A stretch of 64,000 bases of DNA, taken from sequence record OR352954; one strand, 5' to 3'. Both the position numbers and the translations under genes were made by a program. The notes under the pieces are model-generated. The model did no database searches, was not told where the DNA came from, and saw only the letters and a list, made by a program, of their open reading frames with translations. This DNA is from Escherichia phage AV124. This document shows positions 5,637-48,543 of the stretch, piece after piece; position 1 is the first letter of the stretch; each line of letters opens with the position of its first letter.

Positions 5637-6314
5637 ATGAAAGAAGCTTATGATACTCTGAATGCTATGCTGCGCCCAACCTCTCTTGTTAAGTATGCGA
5701 AACATGTTGTAGATTGGAATTCTATCGCAGCCTCTGCAAAGGGTGAATTTACCCCATTGGAAAAGCAGTGGGAGTTTGTAGGAGAGGAGTTACAAGAAAC
5801 CGTTACAGCATTAATCGAAAATGACCGTAAGGAAGTTGTTGATGGAGCGTGTGATTTGTTTGTTGTGGCGTCGTATGCTTATTGGTTGAGTAATAACTAT
5901 TCGCTATCCTCAGATAAATATTTAACTTATAATCCTGACCTTAAGTTTTCTCCTGGTAAAGCTTTGGATGCTTTTGCGAATGATGACTATGAGGGGATGC
6001 TTAAATTGAGCACAGCTTTGTTGTTTGGTCTTGATATGCAATTGCATAAGAACATGCATAGCGTTCTGGAATCTAATGATTCTAAATATCCAACACTTAG
6101 TGAAATTCAGTCTTTGCATAAAGACCTTGACTTGGCAAAAGCCCTTGAGGCAGAATGCACCTGTATCGAACAGCGTAATGGTGGACGCTATGAAGGTGTT
6201 CATTTCTCCATTGTTGATGAGAATATGAAAGAAGAGCCACGTGTCGTATTCTTCGACAAAGGCGGTAAAATCATGAAGCCAGGGACTTTCAAAAAACCAA
6301 ACATTATTGTTTGA
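5637..6314 (+). CDS. hypothetical protein, possibly MazG-like NTP pyrophosphohydrolase
   Basis: EFVGEELQE ... DGACDLFVV resembles MazG EExxE/D motifs; weak. Confidence 0.3.
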   Translation: MKEAYDTLNAMLRPTSLVKYAKHVVDWNSIAASAKGEFTPLEKQWEFVGEELQETVTALIENDRKEVVDGACDLFVVASYAYWLSNNYSLSSDKYLTYNPDLKFSPGKALDAFANDDYEGMLKLSTALLFGLDMQLHKNMHSVLESNDSKYPTLSEIQSLHKDLDLAKALEAECTCIEQRNGGRYEGVHFSIVDENMKEEPRVVFFDKGGKIMKPGTFKKPNIIV

Positions 6315-6339
6315 CAATCGTATCGGGGTCTGTATAATG
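6312..6339 (+). promoter_or_regulatory. sigma70-type promoter (TTGACA-N16-TATAAT)
   Basis: Perfect consensus hexamers. Confidence 0.55.
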
Positions 6340-42029: not shown

Positions 42030-43855
42030 CGCCAAATCTCCTGAAGCGGGAGGATACAATCACCACCCCTGCGTGAAAGGTTGCACATCCCATTAACACA
42101 CATAATATGAAGGGTCTCCCCGATATGTCGATAAAACACCATTTCATAAACACATTGCCGTAACGTGTCGATGCCATAAACATTACGGTGCGAAGCACTT
42201 TGCCAAAGGCAAAAACCTCCGGTGCTATAAATATATCGCCTTGGGCGATTAGCCAGAGGCTAACCCGTACACGGGTAAATATATCGCGTAAACAGGCCCC
42301 TGTTTTCCCCGTATAACCACCCCTTCCCCCCGTGGGGAAATCAAAACATACCCCCTGCCGAAAATATCACTTGCCGAAAAATATCATGGCTTGGTCCTTG
42401 GGTAAAAAATATTGTATTCGCACCATCTGCGGTGTTAGACGGACAGCTCCGGGCGTCAACTATCTTTACGGATCTTTACAAAATATCATGGGCAAGGTCG
42501 ATCCGGTTCCCGGTTCCTCGGGGCCTCTTCAGGCATGATAGTTACTTGCCGAAACTAATAATAATTGGGTGTGTCAGATAGCAAGCTTATGGTTTGCCAG
42601 CTTAGAGCACGATTTGCTATTGACTTGTTTATATTTATATGAATTACACCATTTAACATAAAACACGTTATACGCACTGACCAACAACGCATAGCAGACT
42701 AATAATGCCCCAATGTTACCAGTGTGACGCATAGGACAGCCGCTTCAGGTCATTACATGGTGTGACTGTTACTGTGGTGATAGTTTCATATGTGATTATT
42801 CATGTTTTAGGGTTGTTTTGTGAATGAGACGACGAATGAGAATCATTATTATTTCGATTTCGAATTCAATTTCGAAATGAGAATCATTCCGCAAATATAA
42901 ATATTTTGTAAATTTATAAATAAAAGCTTGACGAGGGAAGAGAATCGTGTTTAGCAATACATACTCTTTGAGCATCATTATCATTTGCGACTAATTCCCA
43001 TAAACCCTTGCTACGCAAGGGATTGATAGATATTTTCGATAATAAAAACACTTGACACTTCAGATAAAATCATGCTCAAAAACAAGCCTTTTCTCATAAG
43101 ATACGATCATCATTCTAATGGTTTGTCAACCATTAAACACGAATTAATTTGATTAAACTGCTAATTGTTTACAGGGTTTACTATCATCAGCGACACAATA
43201 ACACAATGCCCTTCGGGTTGTTTTCGCCACGGAAAACAATGTCCAGATTGACCAAAGGGGTTTTGTGAATCCCCTTTATCTGGACACAATAACACTAGGG
43301 CGATCAACGATAGTTGATCGGTGTTATCGTGGCGATGTGATAAAGTTTCATTGCTAATCATTACAGATGTAATGATAATATACTGTGATAATTTCGTCCT
43401 TGATCGTAGCGTCTACGAGCCACGATAACGCGAACGAGAATGCGATTTGTTCGCATTTGAGTTACCCTAGTGTTATTGTGTCGCTCGCTCCGCTCGCGCC
43501 ACTCCCCACGATTCGCGAACGAGAAATTTTATTGACAGAAAATGATTTCTATGCTCATAAAAAGCCAGTTCACACAATGAGTTAGATGAGGAAAGTTATC
43601 ATTATAGTGATTTATGCTCATATTCACTTCCAGTGCATAGAAATTCATGATTTATTCAGTTAATAACATGCGTTATTAATTAGGTGGGGTTGTGGGGTGA
43701 AAAGCCAGGACCGACACACAATTAAACGCAATATAAAGCGTTTTGAGCGTGGTTATCGGTTACCCTCATCATGGTATGTCTTGTGTTAGATCTCAATTAT
43801 GCACTTTTTTGCATAGCGGCGGGGCCGTGGTGTGGGTTGTTTATGGTGTGGATCT
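42030..43855. other. ~1.9-kb non-coding, palindrome- and repeat-rich region (candidate origin / regulatory region)
   Basis: No convincing ORF; numerous direct repeats, palindromes and nested inverted repeats. Confidence 0.5.
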
Positions 43856-43857
43856 GC

Positions 43858-43885
43858 AAAGAGAAAAGCCAGGTAAAAACCTGGC
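43858..43885 (-). terminator. rho-independent terminator for leftward block
   Basis: gccagg-taaaaa-cctggc hairpin; U tract on minus strand. Confidence 0.55.
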
Positions 43886-44142
43886 CTTTGTGTGATTGTC
43901 TTATGACTGGCTAGCCATATTGTTTTAGATAGTTTACAGCGGAAATTATTGCTTGTGCTCGGCTGTACTCTTCGCCGTTCACACGATAGCGCCGCGCGCC
44001 TTTATGGCACTGGGTGATCATAACCTGGATTATTCCATCCATAACATAGAATGCTTTACTTACGAATAAAATCATCTGATACTTTGCAACCGTGATCCGT
44101 GGCGTATGTTATCGCGTCATCAATTTTTAACATGTCACAACC

Positions 44143-44355
44143 TCATTCATTGATTAGTTTAAATTCCGCTTCAGGGTGATAAAGATCAGCCATATAGCGC
44201 ATTTTGTAATAGAAAGATACTTCCACAATGTGAGGCGCTTCGATTTCTATTTGTGTGATGAGAACGCTACCCGGCTTAAATCCTGGGGCGATGTCCGGTA
44301 ATTCGATAATCATTCCGCCTTTTAAATCTTTCGCTTTTACAGTTCCCATGATCAT
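44143..44355 (-). CDS. hypothetical protein
   Basis: ORF. Confidence 0.45.
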   Translation of the reverse strand: MIMGTVKAKDLKGGMIIELPDIAPGFKPGSVLITQIEIEAPHIVEVSFYYKMRYMADLYHPEAEFKLINE

Positions 44356-44585
44356 TAGCCTTTTTTACGTTTCATTACTTTGATCGCTTTTATGCCTTTT
44401 TGTTCGAAAAATTCCGGGCTTCGCAATTGTGCGGCACTGCTACGGCTTTTTACCTTAGTAGACAATACACCATAATAGCGCCCGTCATCATACTGACCAA
44501 TAAAATAAAAATCGTTTACGCCATATTTTTCATCCCCTGCTTTCTGGATGATTTCGGATAACTTGTCAATACTAATATTAATCAT
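44355..44585 (-). CDS. hypothetical protein
   Basis: ORF. Confidence 0.45.
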   Translation of the reverse strand: MINISIDKLSEIIQKAGDEKYGVNDFYFIGQYDDGRYYGVLSTKVKSRSSAAQLRSPEFFEQKGIKAIKVMKRKKG

Positions 44586-44633
44586 AATTGCTTTACCTCA
44601 AAGGATAGCGGGGCGGCTAGCGCCCCGGTTTGA

Positions 44634-44963
44634 TTATTTGTTAAGCTCTTTATATTCAGCGATCCAGCGGGTAAAAATCTCATACTGTTTTTGTGCTGCT
44701 TTCGCTGTTTTGTGAGAGATAACAGTTATATACCAGCAATTTCCTAAAACATAACCGGATGAATGATAAACCCACGGATATTTCGGATCGATCTCTTTCA
44801 GTTCTTTTTGACGTTCTGGGGACTCGCTCCAGACGTGAGAGACAAAATCAACGGCAGTATAACGGGGAACTTCAAGCGGGACACGCTGACCGAAAGCGTC
44901 AAACTTAAAATTGTGCGACTCTAAATGCTTGTCTAAAAAGGTGAAAAATTCTGATTTTGTCAT
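44634..44963 (-). CDS. hypothetical protein
   Basis: ORF. Confidence 0.45.
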   Translation of the reverse strand: MTKSEFFTFLDKHLESHNFKFDAFGQRVPLEVPRYTAVDFVSHVWSESPERQKELKEIDPKYPWVYHSSGYVLGNCWYITVISHKTAKAAQKQYEIFTRWIAEYKELNK

Positions 44964-45210
44964 TTCCGTTTACCTCGTCAAGTTGTTTTCGTTTGTTTGC
45001 CCTACGAGATAAATAATAATATAAGCGGGGATCGCTGTAAATAGCTCTTTACGTATCTTTACATTACTGTCGTTGTTGAGAGTAATTCTCATTACCGGAA
45101 TAGCGGGCACCTCCGGTGGCTTTCCTCCGGTATCCATCGTTGCCGCTTCAAAAAAGAATAGCAAAAACCAGGACCGAAAGCAAGCCCTAGAATTGTAAAG
45201 ATTTTGCCTA

Positions 45211-45678
45211 TCATACCAGGCCGGATCGCTTCGCCTTTGCAATGTCTGAATATAATTTCCTGAAGTATGCCGGGCCTCGCTCGTTTACTCTCACATATTC
45301 ATCACGCGCCGCCAACTGGTGATCGTCGGGTAATAACCCATGATAACCACTGCTAACAACGGCAATCCGCTTTTTGTTGCAGTCATAGTAAACATATGAA
45401 CCATCGGCTAGATAAATTGTGCAGTTCTGCCGGATGTAGGGTATCAAATACGCGTTGCCCTGGTGCCGGATTTTGTAAAGCGCCATTTGTCCATTGTAGA
45501 TCCGGCGGACGTGATAAGGGTCATTGATTGCCTGGTGAATGTTTTCCTTCCAGGCCTGGCGAGCGTTGCCAACATTACGGATCAGCGCTTCCACCTCTGG
45601 GATCACGACGTTAGCACGGGCGGCGGCTTTTGCCTGGTCTGATAATTCATCGTAATAAAACATTCGTACACTAATCAT
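45211..45678 (-). CDS. hypothetical protein
   Basis: ORF. Confidence 0.45.
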   Translation of the reverse strand: MISVRMFYYDELSDQAKAAARANVVIPEVEALIRNVGNARQAWKENIHQAINDPYHVRRIYNGQMALYKIRHQGNAYLIPYIRQNCTIYLADGSYVYYDCNKKRIAVVSSGYHGLLPDDHQLAARDEYVRVNERGPAYFRKLYSDIAKAKRSGLV

Positions 45679-45824
45679 TTTTTAATCCCCATGAAAGGAA
45701 AGCAAGCCAGATCGGCGGGGCGCAAGTGGTTAACACGTCGCCAGCCTTTTGGCGTTTCAACAAAAACGCGGTTTTCAATCCAGTGATAAATTTTACCAGA
45801 TCGCATATTGAGAAAACGTATCAT
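45675..45824 (-). CDS. small protein
   Basis: 49-aa ORF not in track; ATGA overlap with downstream gene. Confidence 0.3.
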   Translation of the reverse strand: MIRFLNMRSGKIYHWIENRVFVETPKGWRRVNHLRPADLACFPFMGIKK

Positions 45825-45873
45825 TTGCGTTTATCCGTAAAAGTTGCCCCGGATCGCCGGGGCCTGGTGTACA

Positions 45874-46644
45874 TTATGCCACAATGGCGGGACGGTTTAC
45901 AACGGTTGTTTTTACGTCCTGATAGGTATCGTGTTTTTTAACGGTAGCCTTAAACTTAACAACCGCGCCAACCGGGCCGAACTCTTTTGATCCGATGTAT
46001 GTTACTAGGTCATCGCCCTGGCGGACTTTGATAATATAGTATGATGATTGATTCCATTCATCAATTTTGAGATAAGAGAAAACGATCTCACCCTCAAAAA
46101 CCAGGCGATCGCCAATGTTACCGATCCAATTGCTTTTTAAATCCTCGGCTTTACGCTCGGCGCGTTTCTGGTCACGGGCTGCAATGTAACCATGATCAAG
46201 AGCATAACCCAAACACGCCGCGCTTAGTGCTTCCATTACCGGGCCGTTATCTGGCTTGTTTGCCATATCAGCAAAAAATAAAACATAGGATTCTTTAACA
46301 TCGGCAAACGTTTTACCGCAATGCTTGCCAAAAGGAAAGCGCCCCGCTTCGATTTCTTCGATCCGGGCGGTATCGACGATCGACAATTTACCGCGACGTT
46401 GCCCCAGCTCAAAATCTGCGTAGCCTGCAAAAACTTGTTCAAAGTTTTCTGTGTTGGCGATCCGCGCGGTTACTCGATCAAAATATTCCTTTGCTTTAGT
46501 TTCTGCTTTTTGGGGATCGGTTGAAAGATTGCAGATGTAAGAATCTGCAAAAACGCCACCGCCAAAGTTACGGCGGCGCAATGTATACATTGCATTCAGC
46601 TTGCCGGAGTCGATGTAATAGGTAACGGTGATTTTAGTAGTCAT
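45874..46644 (-). CDS. hypothetical protein
   Basis: 256-aa ORF. Confidence 0.5.
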   Translation of the reverse strand: MTTKITVTYYIDSGKLNAMYTLRRRNFGGGVFADSYICNLSTDPQKAETKAKEYFDRVTARIANTENFEQVFAGYADFELGQRRGKLSIVDTARIEEIEAGRFPFGKHCGKTFADVKESYVLFFADMANKPDNGPVMEALSAACLGYALDHGYIAARDQKRAERKAEDLKSNWIGNIGDRLVFEGEIVFSYLKIDEWNQSSYYIIKVRQGDDLVTYIGSKEFGPVGAVVKFKATVKKHDTYQDVKTTVVNRPAIVA

Positions 46645-46751
46645 TCTGTTTTACCTCGATTTGTGGGCCGTCGCATCATTGCCGCCCTATACATTAAATA
46701 TAATAAAAGTCGCTCACGTTTGCAAGCGACTTTTTAGATTAATTTTCTCAA

Positions 46752-47075
46752 TTAGTTAGCACGGAAAACATCGTTTACAATAGCAGTTGTAAACATCCAG
46801 ACCAGATCCGGGGTGGTTATCGGCAGGCTGTCAGCCTGTTTTATTGTTACTCCGCTTCTTTCAAGAGTGTAGGCGATAAAATGACGGTTTTCAAGTTTTC
46901 CACTATGTGATTGAATAGATTTTTCAGTACGGATCAGGACGGTTAAACGGTCCGCTTGTTCGCTGTCATTCTCATGACAAAACACTAACATGGTTTTTTC
47001 TCCCTGGCGATTAAAGTCACAATTAACATTATCGTTAACATTTTCCAGAAAGAAAAATTTGTTTGCCTTTTCCAT
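46752..47075 (-). CDS. hypothetical protein
   Basis: ORF. Confidence 0.45.
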   Translation of the reverse strand: MEKANKFFFLENVNDNVNCDFNRQGEKTMLVFCHENDSEQADRLTVLIRTEKSIQSHSGKLENRHFIAYTLERSGVTIKQADSLPITTPDLVWMFTTAIVNDVFRAN

Positions 47076-47146
47076 ACTATTTTACCTTTTTGTTAGTGGG
47101 CCAATCTTGCCCGGTCCAAGTAATATAGCCTAACCGGGCCGGGTGA

Positions 47147-47443
47147 TCAATGATTATTTTCTTTTTCGGCGTACATCTGGATCAAGCTGGCTGCGTCGAT
47201 ATTGTCAACAAAAAACGAGGATACCGCCACCGCCGGATCACCGTCTACTGGTTCACCATCCGGCATAGGTTCGACTTCTGGCGATGGTATGCACGCCGGA
47301 TTAATCCAGCGCCCATAGCGCTGATAGTCAACGGCGACGATCTCGCAAGTCAATTGATCATCATAGCTTTCTACTACATAATCGCCACACTGTTTTAAGG
47401 CTAGCGCACTATAAAAACACACACCCGCGAATACTTCGAACAT
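47147..47443 (-). CDS. hypothetical protein
   Basis: ORF. Confidence 0.45.
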   Translation of the reverse strand: MFEVFAGVCFYSALALKQCGDYVVESYDDQLTCEIVAVDYQRYGRWINPACIPSPEVEPMPDGEPVDGDPAVAVSSFFVDNIDAASLIQMYAEKENNH

Positions 47444-47453
47444 GTTAACCGCC

Positions 47454-47696
47454 TTATTTTTTCAGAGTAATGATCGGGCGCTTGTCGCCCTCTTTGACGC
47501 CAGGATCTAACGTATCGCAGATCCCCACTTGCTCACCCTTTTTCAAAGTGTAGCTGTTTTCGTACACCTCGCAAGCTTGTTCGTCATCAAAAACTTTCTT
47601 TACAGTCCAATCACATTGTAATGACATTGAACTAACAGAAATGTGACAAGCTAATAAAATAAATCCGAACATGGTAGCCGCCTTAATGGGGCGCAA
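47454..47696 (-). CDS. small lipoprotein-like protein
   Basis: Signal peptide with lipobox-like LLAC. Confidence 0.45.
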   Translation of the reverse strand: MRPIKAATMFGFILLACHISVSSMSLQCDWTVKKVFDDEQACEVYENSYTLKKGEQVGICDTLDPGVKEGDKRPIITLKK

Positions 47697-47710
47697 GGCC
47701 CCGCTATTGA

Positions 47711-48034
47711 TTATTTGTTGATCTGGTTTGTCTGATTATAGATCCCATATTGAACACGGGACACGGTAACAGATTGAGGGAGTAAGCAACGAACACGATC
47801 CGCGCGGTTGTCATATTTTTTAATATGCGCCGGAGTATTGTTGCGGGTAAACTTAACACGCAAACGTAATTTATTTGGATCGCGGTCATCGATGCCGGTT
47901 ACCACACCGAAAGCGATTTGGCCATAGTTATGATAAACCATTTTACCCAGAAATTTTGATTCAAGATCGGCGATGTTAGATTTTACGTTTTGCATGTTGT
48001 TTACCTTTTTCAGAGTGGCGGTGAATTCCGCCAC
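47711..48034 (-). CDS. hypothetical protein
   Basis: ORF. Confidence 0.45.
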   Translation of the reverse strand: MAEFTATLKKVNNMQNVKSNIADLESKFLGKMVYHNYGQIAFGVVTGIDDRDPNKLRLRVKFTRNNTPAHIKKYDNRADRVRCLLPQSVTVSRVQYGIYNQTNQINK

Positions 48035-48295
48035 TGATTAAAGGATAGCATAACGCCGACAGGATGCAACAAATATTTTTAGAATTGTTGAGAACTGTTC
48101 TCATATGCAGTGATATGCATAGAAAATCGCTGTTATGCAATTAGTTTCAACTGGTTACTAAATTTGTGGCGTTTTGAGCGTGGCGCGGCTATCCGATACC
48201 CTCTAAAACGCCCTCAAATCGATTCTAAGCGCTTCAATCTGTAGCCCTGGTAAGTGCATTGCTACGCTGAGATCTCGCTAAATTCACTTTTTTGC

Positions 48296-48323
48296 ATAAA
48301 AAAGCCGGGGATAATTCCCCGGC
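48296..48323 (-). terminator. rho-independent terminator / intergenic hairpin
   Basis: gccgggg-ataatt-ccccggc hairpin, U tract on minus strand; near-identical hairpin at ~49299. Confidence 0.5.
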
Positions 48324-48327
48324 CTGG

Positions 48328-48543
48328 TTACTCACCTGTTACGGCGTATCGCTGCAAATTACGTTTACGATCGGCAAGGCGTTTATTTAACTTCGGGTCG
48401 TACTGGTCCGGCGACCATTGAACCGCGATCCGTTCCGGCTTATGCCGTTTATTGTTACGCTCTCGCCGCTCGTTAGTCTCACCAAAAGCAAGGCGATCGC
48501 GCTGGCTTGTCATCTTCTCAAAGTTGCGGCTTTTTGCTGTCAT
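48328..48543 (-). CDS. small basic protein
   Basis: Arg/Lys-rich ORF. Confidence 0.45.
   Translation of the reverse strand: MTAKSRNFEKMTSQRDRLAFGETNERRERNNKRHKPERIAVQWSPDQYDPKLNKRLADRKRNLQRYAVTGE

Follow-up and report, generated by a model that had tools for sequence, protein, structure and literature searches.

Do two intergenic regions of a phage genome that share a single short word also share an element and, if they do, does that element work as RNA or as DNA? The question is raised by a stretch of 64,000 nucleotides from Escherichia phage AV124 (OR352954; hereafter the window), in which the initial annotation had reported the 15-mer GCGTTTTGAGCGTGG in two separate intergenic regions, here called R1 and R2 (Table 1). 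The phage belongs to the Vequintavirinae, near the Klebsiella Mydoviruses (92-94% identical to DP, KpS8 and Mydo), a group (rV5-like, PVP-SE1-like and Mydovirus phages) that is widely proposed for therapy and biocontrol; its early regulation, its replication origin and its large terminal non-coding region are unexplained. The two regions are diverged copies of a conserved non-coding intergenic cassette of about 200 bp. The cassette is previously undescribed: it is mentioned neither in Rfam, nor in the Certrevirus paper (PMC7344957), nor in the annotations of 60-odd related genomes, and the rV5 paper (PMC3606486) marks no more than a 'non-coding' box.

Results

Copies and conservation of the cassette

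The 15-mer was found exactly in both regions and, at up to two mismatches, nowhere else in the window. An exact repeat of this length is nevertheless unremarkable on its own, because about ten other independent pairs of positions in the window also share an exact 15-mer, and this is what could be said for a chance resemblance. That explanation, to which we attach a negligible probability, is refuted by the colinear similarity of R1 and R2 over about 200 nt (Smith-Waterman score of 36 against 9.6 +/- 1.3 for shuffles, z ~20, and against 16 for the best of 552 other tiles of the window), by the matches to a hidden Markov model (HMM) and by the conservation of both loci as non-coding DNA across three genera. 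The model was built from 20 copies taken from the window and related phages, R2 being in the training set and R1 not, and with nhmmer it returned exactly two matches in the window, the R1 and R2 copies listed in Table 1. In unannotated DNA of Mydovirus and Seunavirus the identity to R1 is 74-88% (74-79% for Seunavirus), and R2, also unannotated everywhere, is 92-96% identical in Mydovirus and about 76% in Seunavirus.

Table 1. Cassette copies, their parts and the adjoining transcription signals (positions in the window)
Feature	Position	Strand	Remarks
R1 cassette copy	43617-43817	+	nhmmer E = 1.4e-32; in the large non-coding region
R1 left direct repeat ATTCACTTCCAGTGCATA	43622-43639	+	contains TGCATAGAAA
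R1 H1 inverted repeat/hairpin	43660-43679		TTAATAAC-ATGC-GTTATTAA; other stem sequence elsewhere, same place
15-mer copy 1, block 'b' of R1	43738-43752	+	GCGTTT (43738-43743) pairs with AAACGC (43724-43729)
R1 right direct repeat ATGCACTTTTTTGCATA	43799-43815	+	TGCATA spacing 176 nt
Terminator closing the leftward gene block	43868-43885	-	50 nt right of R1; annotated in phage Mydo
R3 scar	45058-45092		whole cassette with both repeats absent; present in nearly all relatives
Sigma70-like promoter of the next leftward gene	48042-48069	-	TTGCAT (48069-48064), 16 nt, TATCCT (48047-48042); conserved hexamers, read from sequence
R2 cassette copy	48097-48303	+	nhmmer E = 2.5e-54; between leftward genes 48328-48543 and 47711-47995
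R2 left direct repeat ATGCAGTGATATGCATA	48105-48121	+	perfect palindrome TATGCA-N6-TGCATA at 48104-48121
15-mer copy 2, block 'a' of R2	48169-48183	+	5' arm of stem 48168-48178 / 48201-48212
Three ~10-nt tandem units of R2, CTCTAAAACGC / CCTCAAATCG / ATTCTAAGCG	48201-48231	+	10-nt spacing
GAGATCTC palindrome, conserved block	48269-48276		R1 equivalent AGATCT, 43788-43793
R2 right direct repeat ATTCACTTTTTTGCATA	48282-48298	+	177 nt from left repeat
Intrinsic terminator of the upstream leftward gene	48302-48325	-	directly beside R2 right repeat

Between two and four copies were counted per genome in relatives from Mydovirus, Seunavirus and Henunavirus, which include uncultivated IMG/VR contigs and, by the HMM, Erwinia phage Hena1; the same model finds no copy in rV5. 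All copies lie in the same orientation between early genes; identity is about 50% between paralogues, which align almost without gaps, and 70-93% between orthologues. Cross-matches of R1 and R2 among the other phages revealed a third site, R3, and a fourth, R4, in phage FENT2, where the extra copy was duplicated together with the adjacent promoter. The window phage has lost R3 by a clean removal: positions 45058-45075 read CTTTACATTA-CTGTC-GTTGTTGAGAG, the place at which KpS8 carries the entire cassette, and nearly all other Mydoviruses retain it. Beyond these phages, a scan of IMG/VR with the 17-nt box described below gave mostly chance matches and a gain of seven useful divergent relatives, the cassette itself occurring only in related phages, and no match was found in 5,426 E. 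coli genomes. Two partial occurrences were seen. Certrevirus KaOmega carries the right half of a cassette only (L041 1195-1300), and the 30-nt central core TTTAAACGTCCTGTAACGC... lies between genes of the unrelated jumbo Klebsiella phages KP13-7 (L040 1191-1236) and RaK2; together they hint at a modular exchange of intergenic DNA between phages that share hosts.

A conserved open reading frame (ORF) was considered and rejected. Six-frame translation of seven copies met stops throughout and gave no open or conserved frame, and the short peptide MHLPG...EALR recurs among R2 orthologues only, being absent from R1 and R3.

Anatomy of the cassette

The order of parts was read from an alignment (A1) of 31 cassette copies, which is also the basis of the helix counts given below. 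The cassette ends in two 17-nt direct repeats, ATTCACTtTTTTGCATA, 176-177 nt apart, and two further strings that the initial annotation had recognized in both regions, TGCATAGAAA (43634-43643 and 48116-48125) and CACTTTTTTGCATA (43802-43815 and 48285-48298), prove to be parts of them. In A1 the left repeat reads (A/T)ATTCAC-N4-5-TGCATAA, and the right one, AAATTCACTTTTTTGCATAA, is nearly invariant across the 31 copies. Measured from TGCATA to TGCATA, R2 and every relative examined give 177 nt, and R1 of the window gives 176 nt; this spacing is fixed even among copies that are only about 50% identical, and each of the nine phages compared has its terminal repeats in direct orientation on one strand. 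The left repeat is followed by a TATGCAA box, which repeats TGCATA in inverted form (helix H0), by a second inverted repeat whose sequence varies by copy (H1), by CTAAATTTAAG, by block 'a' (CGTTTTGAGCGT) and by a variable stretch. Three units, TAAAACGC, TGTAACGC and T(C/T)TAAGCG, then start exactly 10 columns apart (111/121/131 of A1), the third overlapping block 'b' (GCGTTTT(G/A)AGCG), and ACCCTGG, GAGATCTC and the right repeat complete the cassette. What is conserved in A1 as sequence is the 17-nt right repeat, GAGATCTC and the TAAAACGC units.

Seen against this anatomy, the 15-mer is only one conserved block of a paralogous cassette and not the functional unit. The exact match even joins blocks that are not equivalent, 'b' of R1 and 'a' of R2, which are direct repeats of each other and each of which holds the inverse of the ~10-nt TAAAACGC unit. 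A similar stretch, TATC(G/C)G(T/A)TACCCTC, does follow both copies (TATCGGTTACCCTC at 43754-43767 and TATCCGATACCCTC at 48190-48203) and, like TGCATAGAAA and CACTTTTTTGCATA, is essentially confined to the two regions within the window. The long imperfect stem predicted for the second copy was also recovered, GGCGTTTTGAG pairing with CTCTAAAACGCC at -20.8 kcal/mol on the + strand (z -2.6) and -24.0 kcal/mol on the - strand (z -3.5). The 15-mer of R1 pairs upstream and that of R2 downstream, so that the stem is not a conserved feature.

A separate palindrome, TGAGAA-N3-5-TTCTCA, adjoins a terminal repeat at 48089-48103 (left of R2) and at 45077-45092 (right of the R3 scar), and occurs also in an insertion beside R1 of FENT2, EC152 and PVP-SE1; an operator-like site and a hairpin are both conceivable.

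RNA folding and helical phasing

Over the 31 copies RNAalifold returned no consensus structure (0 pairs, 0 kcal/mol). This null result is not a failure of the method, because the same tool folds the neighboring conserved element 43283-43482 at -64 kcal/mol with 49 pairs, 13 of them compensated. When named helices were counted on A1, H0 was paired in 90% and H1 in 77% of cases, and the 15-mer stem (a:m) and its alternative (m:b) in 65% each, against 28-45% for controls in which the helices were slid; five of the eight pairs of H1 are changed on both sides (e.g., A-U 13, G-C 13). The short inverted repeats are thus real and partly co-varying. Wobble pairs carry no strand signal, G.T standing to A.C as 10:11 in an unbiased helix search and as 55:66 in the named helices, and an earlier argument for a + strand RNA, made from about ten G.U-only changes picked by eye, was withdrawn after these balanced counts. 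Nor is there a thermodynamic preference for one strand; if anything, the - strand folds slightly better.

At the level of the duplex, a periodicity of AA/TT steps of 9.75-10.75 bp is individually significant in most copies. With 300 shuffles for each, the observed power was reached by 2 for R2 of the window, 3 for EC152 R2, 1 for Esp R2, 5 for 4MG R1, 3 for KpS8 R3 and 0 for Hena1. Phasing of this kind characterizes duplex DNA that is bent or wrapped and does not characterize RNA. In their A/T and G/C skews, R2 and R3 agree with the leftward units on either side.

Searches for known RNAs were negative. Rfam gave 0 matches at gathering thresholds over the whole window and, at E<=10 over 43000-48400, chance-level matches only, all at least 20 bits under the cut-offs; readings of the cassette as tRNA or tmRNA found nothing to support them. 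In a test for intrinsic terminators no U-run followed the 15-mer stems, the true terminators being separate hairpins of the - strand. Of the proposal that the two regions form a common regulatory or RNA element, the one common non-coding element therefore stands and the RNA alternative is unsupported by RNAalifold and by the wobble counts; on the sequence evidence, the regulatory alternative appears to fit better.

Genomic setting and neighboring transcription signals

Rightward genes end near 42400 and small leftward genes run from about 58000 down to 43911, leaving about 1.5 kb between the two blocks that is non-coding or nearly so. For Mydovirus KPP-1 a direct terminal repeat of 514 bp and T7-type packaging are described (PMC9862379). 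That repeat, which was defined by coverage and PhageTerm, maps to 42438-42951 of the window, which is the predicted 514-bp direct terminal repeat marking the physical ends of the genome, and hence what looks in the window like a convergent junction would be the genome terminus. The terminal repeat annotated in Henunavirus Hena1 shares these end sequences: like that of KPP-1, it starts GACGGACA... and ends ...TGTGTT just past a TTGAC(A/G) motif. On this map R1 lies 670-870 bp inward of the predicted left terminal repeat and R2 5.7 kb from the physical left end, and the genes between them are transcribed toward that end.

On the gene-sense (-) strand R2 starts right after a terminator and stops 35 nt short of the -35 hexamer of the sigma70-like promoter that follows. 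In R2, R3 and R4 of Seunavirus and in R3 of Mydovirus the distance from cassette to -35 is 23-24 nt, about one helical turn less than in R2 of the window. Three divergent contigs (L033, L022 and L010) have TTGCAT/CTGCAT-N17-CATAAT/CATAAA as the left end of the cassette itself, with a ribosome-binding site and ATG at once after it; in the window phage the corresponding hexamer is degenerate (CATATC). Since no terminator precedes the cassette in L018, L033 and L022, it must be transcribed there within the mRNA. We found no transcript map of any Mydovirus or Seunavirus in the literature.

The terminal region also holds a conserved + strand motif, TTGACA-N13-14-ATGCTCA(A/T)AAA, in two copies (43532-43560, facing R1, and 43052-43078) that point inward from the genome end. 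The motif (TTGACA...TGCTCA(T/A)AAA) is promoter-like with a non-canonical -10, and its status as a promoter is uncertain because its spacing is broken by insertions in Mydo (a 53-nt insertion in the R1-facing copy) and in EC152 (in the twin). The reverse complement of ATGCTCAAAA in the motif resembles the core of the 15-mer (TTTTGAGCAT vs TTTTGAGCGT). Elsewhere in the window, a perfect consensus sigma70 promoter (TTGACA-17-TATAAT at 6301-6329) lies upstream of a rightward gene, which indicates that the phage uses canonical host promoters and makes the odd -10 sequences of the terminal region stand out.

Discussion

The interpretation that we favor, tentatively and as somewhat short of probable, is that the cassette is a cis-acting bent-DNA module, regulatory or architectural, of early transcription units. 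It draws on features that were observed directly, namely the paralogy and conservation of the copies, their anatomy with its fixed spacing, the AA/TT phasing, the placement with respect to terminators and promoters, and the lack of a family-wide RNA fold. The cassettes would act in cis, mainly at the DNA level, as the upstream region of early units read by the host RNA polymerase, each starting right after the terminator of the preceding unit. Because 177 bp correspond to about 17 helical turns, the two 17-bp boxes, putatively equivalent protein-binding sites, would lie on the same face of the helix, and the phased A/T tracts, together with the 10-bp-spaced TAAAACGC-like units in both orientations, would make the DNA between them bent or wrappable. 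The end of the cassette would be held 23-24 bp upstream of the next -35, or one turn more (35 bp) in R2 of the window. Some distant relatives appear to use the left end of the cassette (TTGCAT-N17-CATAAT) directly as the promoter of the downstream gene. We infer that the boxes are bound by a DNA-binding protein of host or phage origin, or by RNA polymerase, and that this binding may set the strength or timing of the neighboring early promoters; R1, with no gene downstream, would be a retained copy that acts as a boundary element near the genome end. As to the identity of such a protein, sigma54-like, MotA-box-like, DnaA-box, IHF, CRP, PurR, MetJ and LexA sites were considered for the 17-nt box or the TAAAACGC unit and set aside, their consensuses failing to fit the spacing or key bases.

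Several observations weigh against this interpretation. R1 is conserved though neither a leftward promoter nor a gene lies downstream of it. The window phage lost the R3 cassette yet retains the adjacent promoter (45041-45013), and therefore the cassette is not needed for the promoter to exist; in KaOmega, moreover, the half-cassette and the homologous promoter stand in the opposite relative orientation. H0 and H1 persist with sequences that differ between copies, which suits a nucleic-acid hairpin better than a sequence-specific duplex site, and the cassette core folds modestly better than shuffles on both strands (z -1.7 on +, -2.5 on -). Finally, AA/TT phasing is not significant in R1 of the window (80/300) or in L018 (78/300).

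Some of these points favor a functional RNA encoded by, or including, each cassette on either strand, a possibility to be taken seriously even though we consider it rather unlikely. Such an RNA could be a small + strand transcript of ~120-200 nt that is antisense to the genes on either side, or else a structured leader or intercistronic part of the leftward mRNAs that controls processing, stability or translation of the next gene. The hairpins kept with changed sequences and the z-scores of the R2 stem and of the cores speak for it, as does the gene-sense transcription that is implied where, in L018, L033 and L010, the cassette lies between a stop codon and the next ribosome-binding site with no terminator; the alternative pairings a:m and m:b resemble a switch, and candidate + strand promoters can be proposed upstream (TTGACA-17-TCATAA with TG at 43532-43560, CCGACA-18-TAGAAT at 48056-48085, and TTTACA-18-AAnnAT in Seunavirus). 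These promoters, however, sit at differing positions across copies and are poor for R2 of the window, and the insertion in Mydo splits the motif at R1. The hairpins beside the cassette terminate the - strand, with U-runs there only, and neither the empty consensus fold and Rfam search nor the lack of a G.U excess over A.C on either strand agrees with an RNA, for which the 10-bp phasing would have no rationale. A role in replication, with the cassettes as iteron-type or auxiliary origins, or as primosome or protein-loading sites of the left arm, is distinctly improbable in our estimation. Phased 10-bp direct units with an inverted unit, bent DNA and palindromes are present, in tandem at helical spacing, R1 lies in the terminal non-coding region, and two to four individually dispensable copies would be in keeping with multiple origins. 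In Vequintavirus Bas54, furthermore, the corresponding intergenic region of about 2 kb tolerates no transposon insertion (preprint 10.1101/2025.11.20.689424). This essentiality is not transferable to the cassette, because rV5, and so probably phages of the Bas54 type, has no copy; no initiator gene was recognized among the neighbors and no AT-rich unwinding element was identified, and the GC skew tracks the direction of transcription only.

That the cassette is a small non-autonomous mobile element, of the kind of miniature inverted-repeat transposable elements (MITE) or repetitive extragenic palindromic (REP) sequences and without function for the phage, seems very improbable. Copies are indeed present or absent with precise borders, as in the loss of R3 here and the extra R4 of FENT2, and the half-copy of KaOmega and the core shared with jumbo Klebsiella phages are what a mobile element might leave. 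The terminal repeats are nonetheless direct and not inverted, no target-site duplication is seen, and the loss of R3 leaves a 5-nt filler; the paralogues are ancient and stand at orthologous positions across genera, as the degrees of identity show. No transposase, HUH/Y1 protein or RAYT was found among the neighboring ORFs, and the searches of E. coli genomes and IMG/VR extended the element only to related phages. A 'transposase-like' label carried by a neighboring ORF in EspYZU08 is unsupported by Pfam or PHROGs for the homologue in the window.

Judged by its sequence features, the cassette can be classed as an interspersed intergenic regulatory repeat of the phage early region, its nearest counterparts being the promoter-early stem-loop (PeSL) cassettes, curved activating regions, iterons, and REP sequences or bacterial interspersed mosaic elements (BIME). 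PeSL are regulatory cassettes of T4-type phages that Arbiol and colleagues reportedly described in 2010. The present cassette resembles them in being a short, repeated, non-coding module that stands among the small genes of a plastic early region, is found with early promoters of the sigma70 type and is duplicated or lost as a unit. It differs in its length of about 200 bp with 17-nt direct repeats at a fixed 177 nt, where a PeSL has a promoter and one stem-loop; it also lies upstream of the promoter instead of comprising the promoter and a hairpin after it, is not known to share sequence with PeSL, and has one copy without any gene. Activating regions of curved DNA or of UP/Fis type lie upstream of rrnB P1 and of the early promoters of SPO1/SP82. 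They have in common with the cassette the phased A/T tracts upstream of a sigma70 promoter and blocks at a fixed helical phase from the -35. The cassette, however, reaches to about -250, far past known wrapping by RNA polymerase, and has conserved GC-containing boxes and palindromes, and no Fis, IHF or CRP consensus was recognized in it.

The remaining parallels are looser. The O-binding iterons of the lambda origin, offered as a lead only, are likewise short units at helical spacing with bending and partial dyad symmetry, and the strings CCCTCTAAAACG and CCCTCAAATCG of R2 resemble the lambda iteron core CCCTCAAAACG; the CCCTC part is unconserved in R1, R3 and other copies, no O-like initiator is present, and the units measure 10 nt instead of 18-22 nt. 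Like REP, BIME and enterobacterial repetitive intergenic consensus (ERIC) sequences, the cassette is intergenic and palindrome-rich, lies just after terminators or stop codons and occurs in several copies, but these number two to four and not hundreds, keep a single orientation and orthologous positions, and have neither an E. coli counterpart nor a RAYT. The RNase III sites of the T7 early genes likewise form a set of structured intergenic paralogues that share one orientation within an early region, and the window phage further shares with T7 the type of terminal repeats and a gene 1.1-like ORF beside R2; the present elements lie between terminator and promoter, however, and show no conserved long irregular hairpin.

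The cassette is now defined as a multi-copy, cross-genus element with exact coordinates and borders, 17-bp boxes, 177-bp spacing and phased bends, and is placed on the physical map just inside a T7-type terminal repeat. If it does control early promoters or encode RNAs, it would offer a handle on the timing of host take-over and a useful component for engineering these phages; should it have no measurable effect, it would show that reasons of another kind can preserve conserved intergenic 'dark matter' across genera.

Other features of the region

The element at 43283-43482 that folds under RNAalifold is strongly structured and conserved, lies in the terminal non-coding region and has no Rfam match. 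Its 18-bp outer stem is wholly different in Hena1 (CTATAAACGCTGATAG/CTATCAGCGTTTATAG) and still pairs, and a U.G pair is kept on the + strand in 9 of 10 sequences; it is a candidate for a new structured RNA or cruciform. We regard it as doubtful, though worth stating, that this element and the cassettes together represent a new multi-copy family of phage non-coding RNA genes or, alternatively, a new multi-copy architectural DNA site. In the former case the RNAs would be transcribed from the initial 1-6 kb that follow the left terminal repeat and would be among the first products after DNA entry; in the latter, the site would organize early transcription, replication or DNA entry in myoviruses with T7-type ends.

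In rV5 the 'non-coding' box has no detectable similarity to the non-coding region of the window; this box, of 2.6 kb, contains about ten iteron-like TGTTTAC/TGTTCAC repeats (record ~105480-105660; L039 7480-7660). Among the genes near the cassettes, the leftward 48328-48543, just upstream of R2, encodes 71 aa that match Pfam PF08200 (Phage_1_1, T7 gene 1.1 protein; E = 2.7e-7). A T7-like early gene is found here in a myovirus whose terminal repeats are likewise of the T7 type. The other neighboring ORFs gave no informative domains in Pfam or PHROGs. Close to the R3 scar, a leftward ORF of 40 aa (45092-45214, -; MIGKIFTILGLAFGPGFCYSFLKRQRWIPEESHRRCPLFR) has a hydrophobic N-terminus, and its product is probably a small membrane protein; its DNA at 45072-45205 is 88-90% identical between genera and is the best-conserved stretch of the region.

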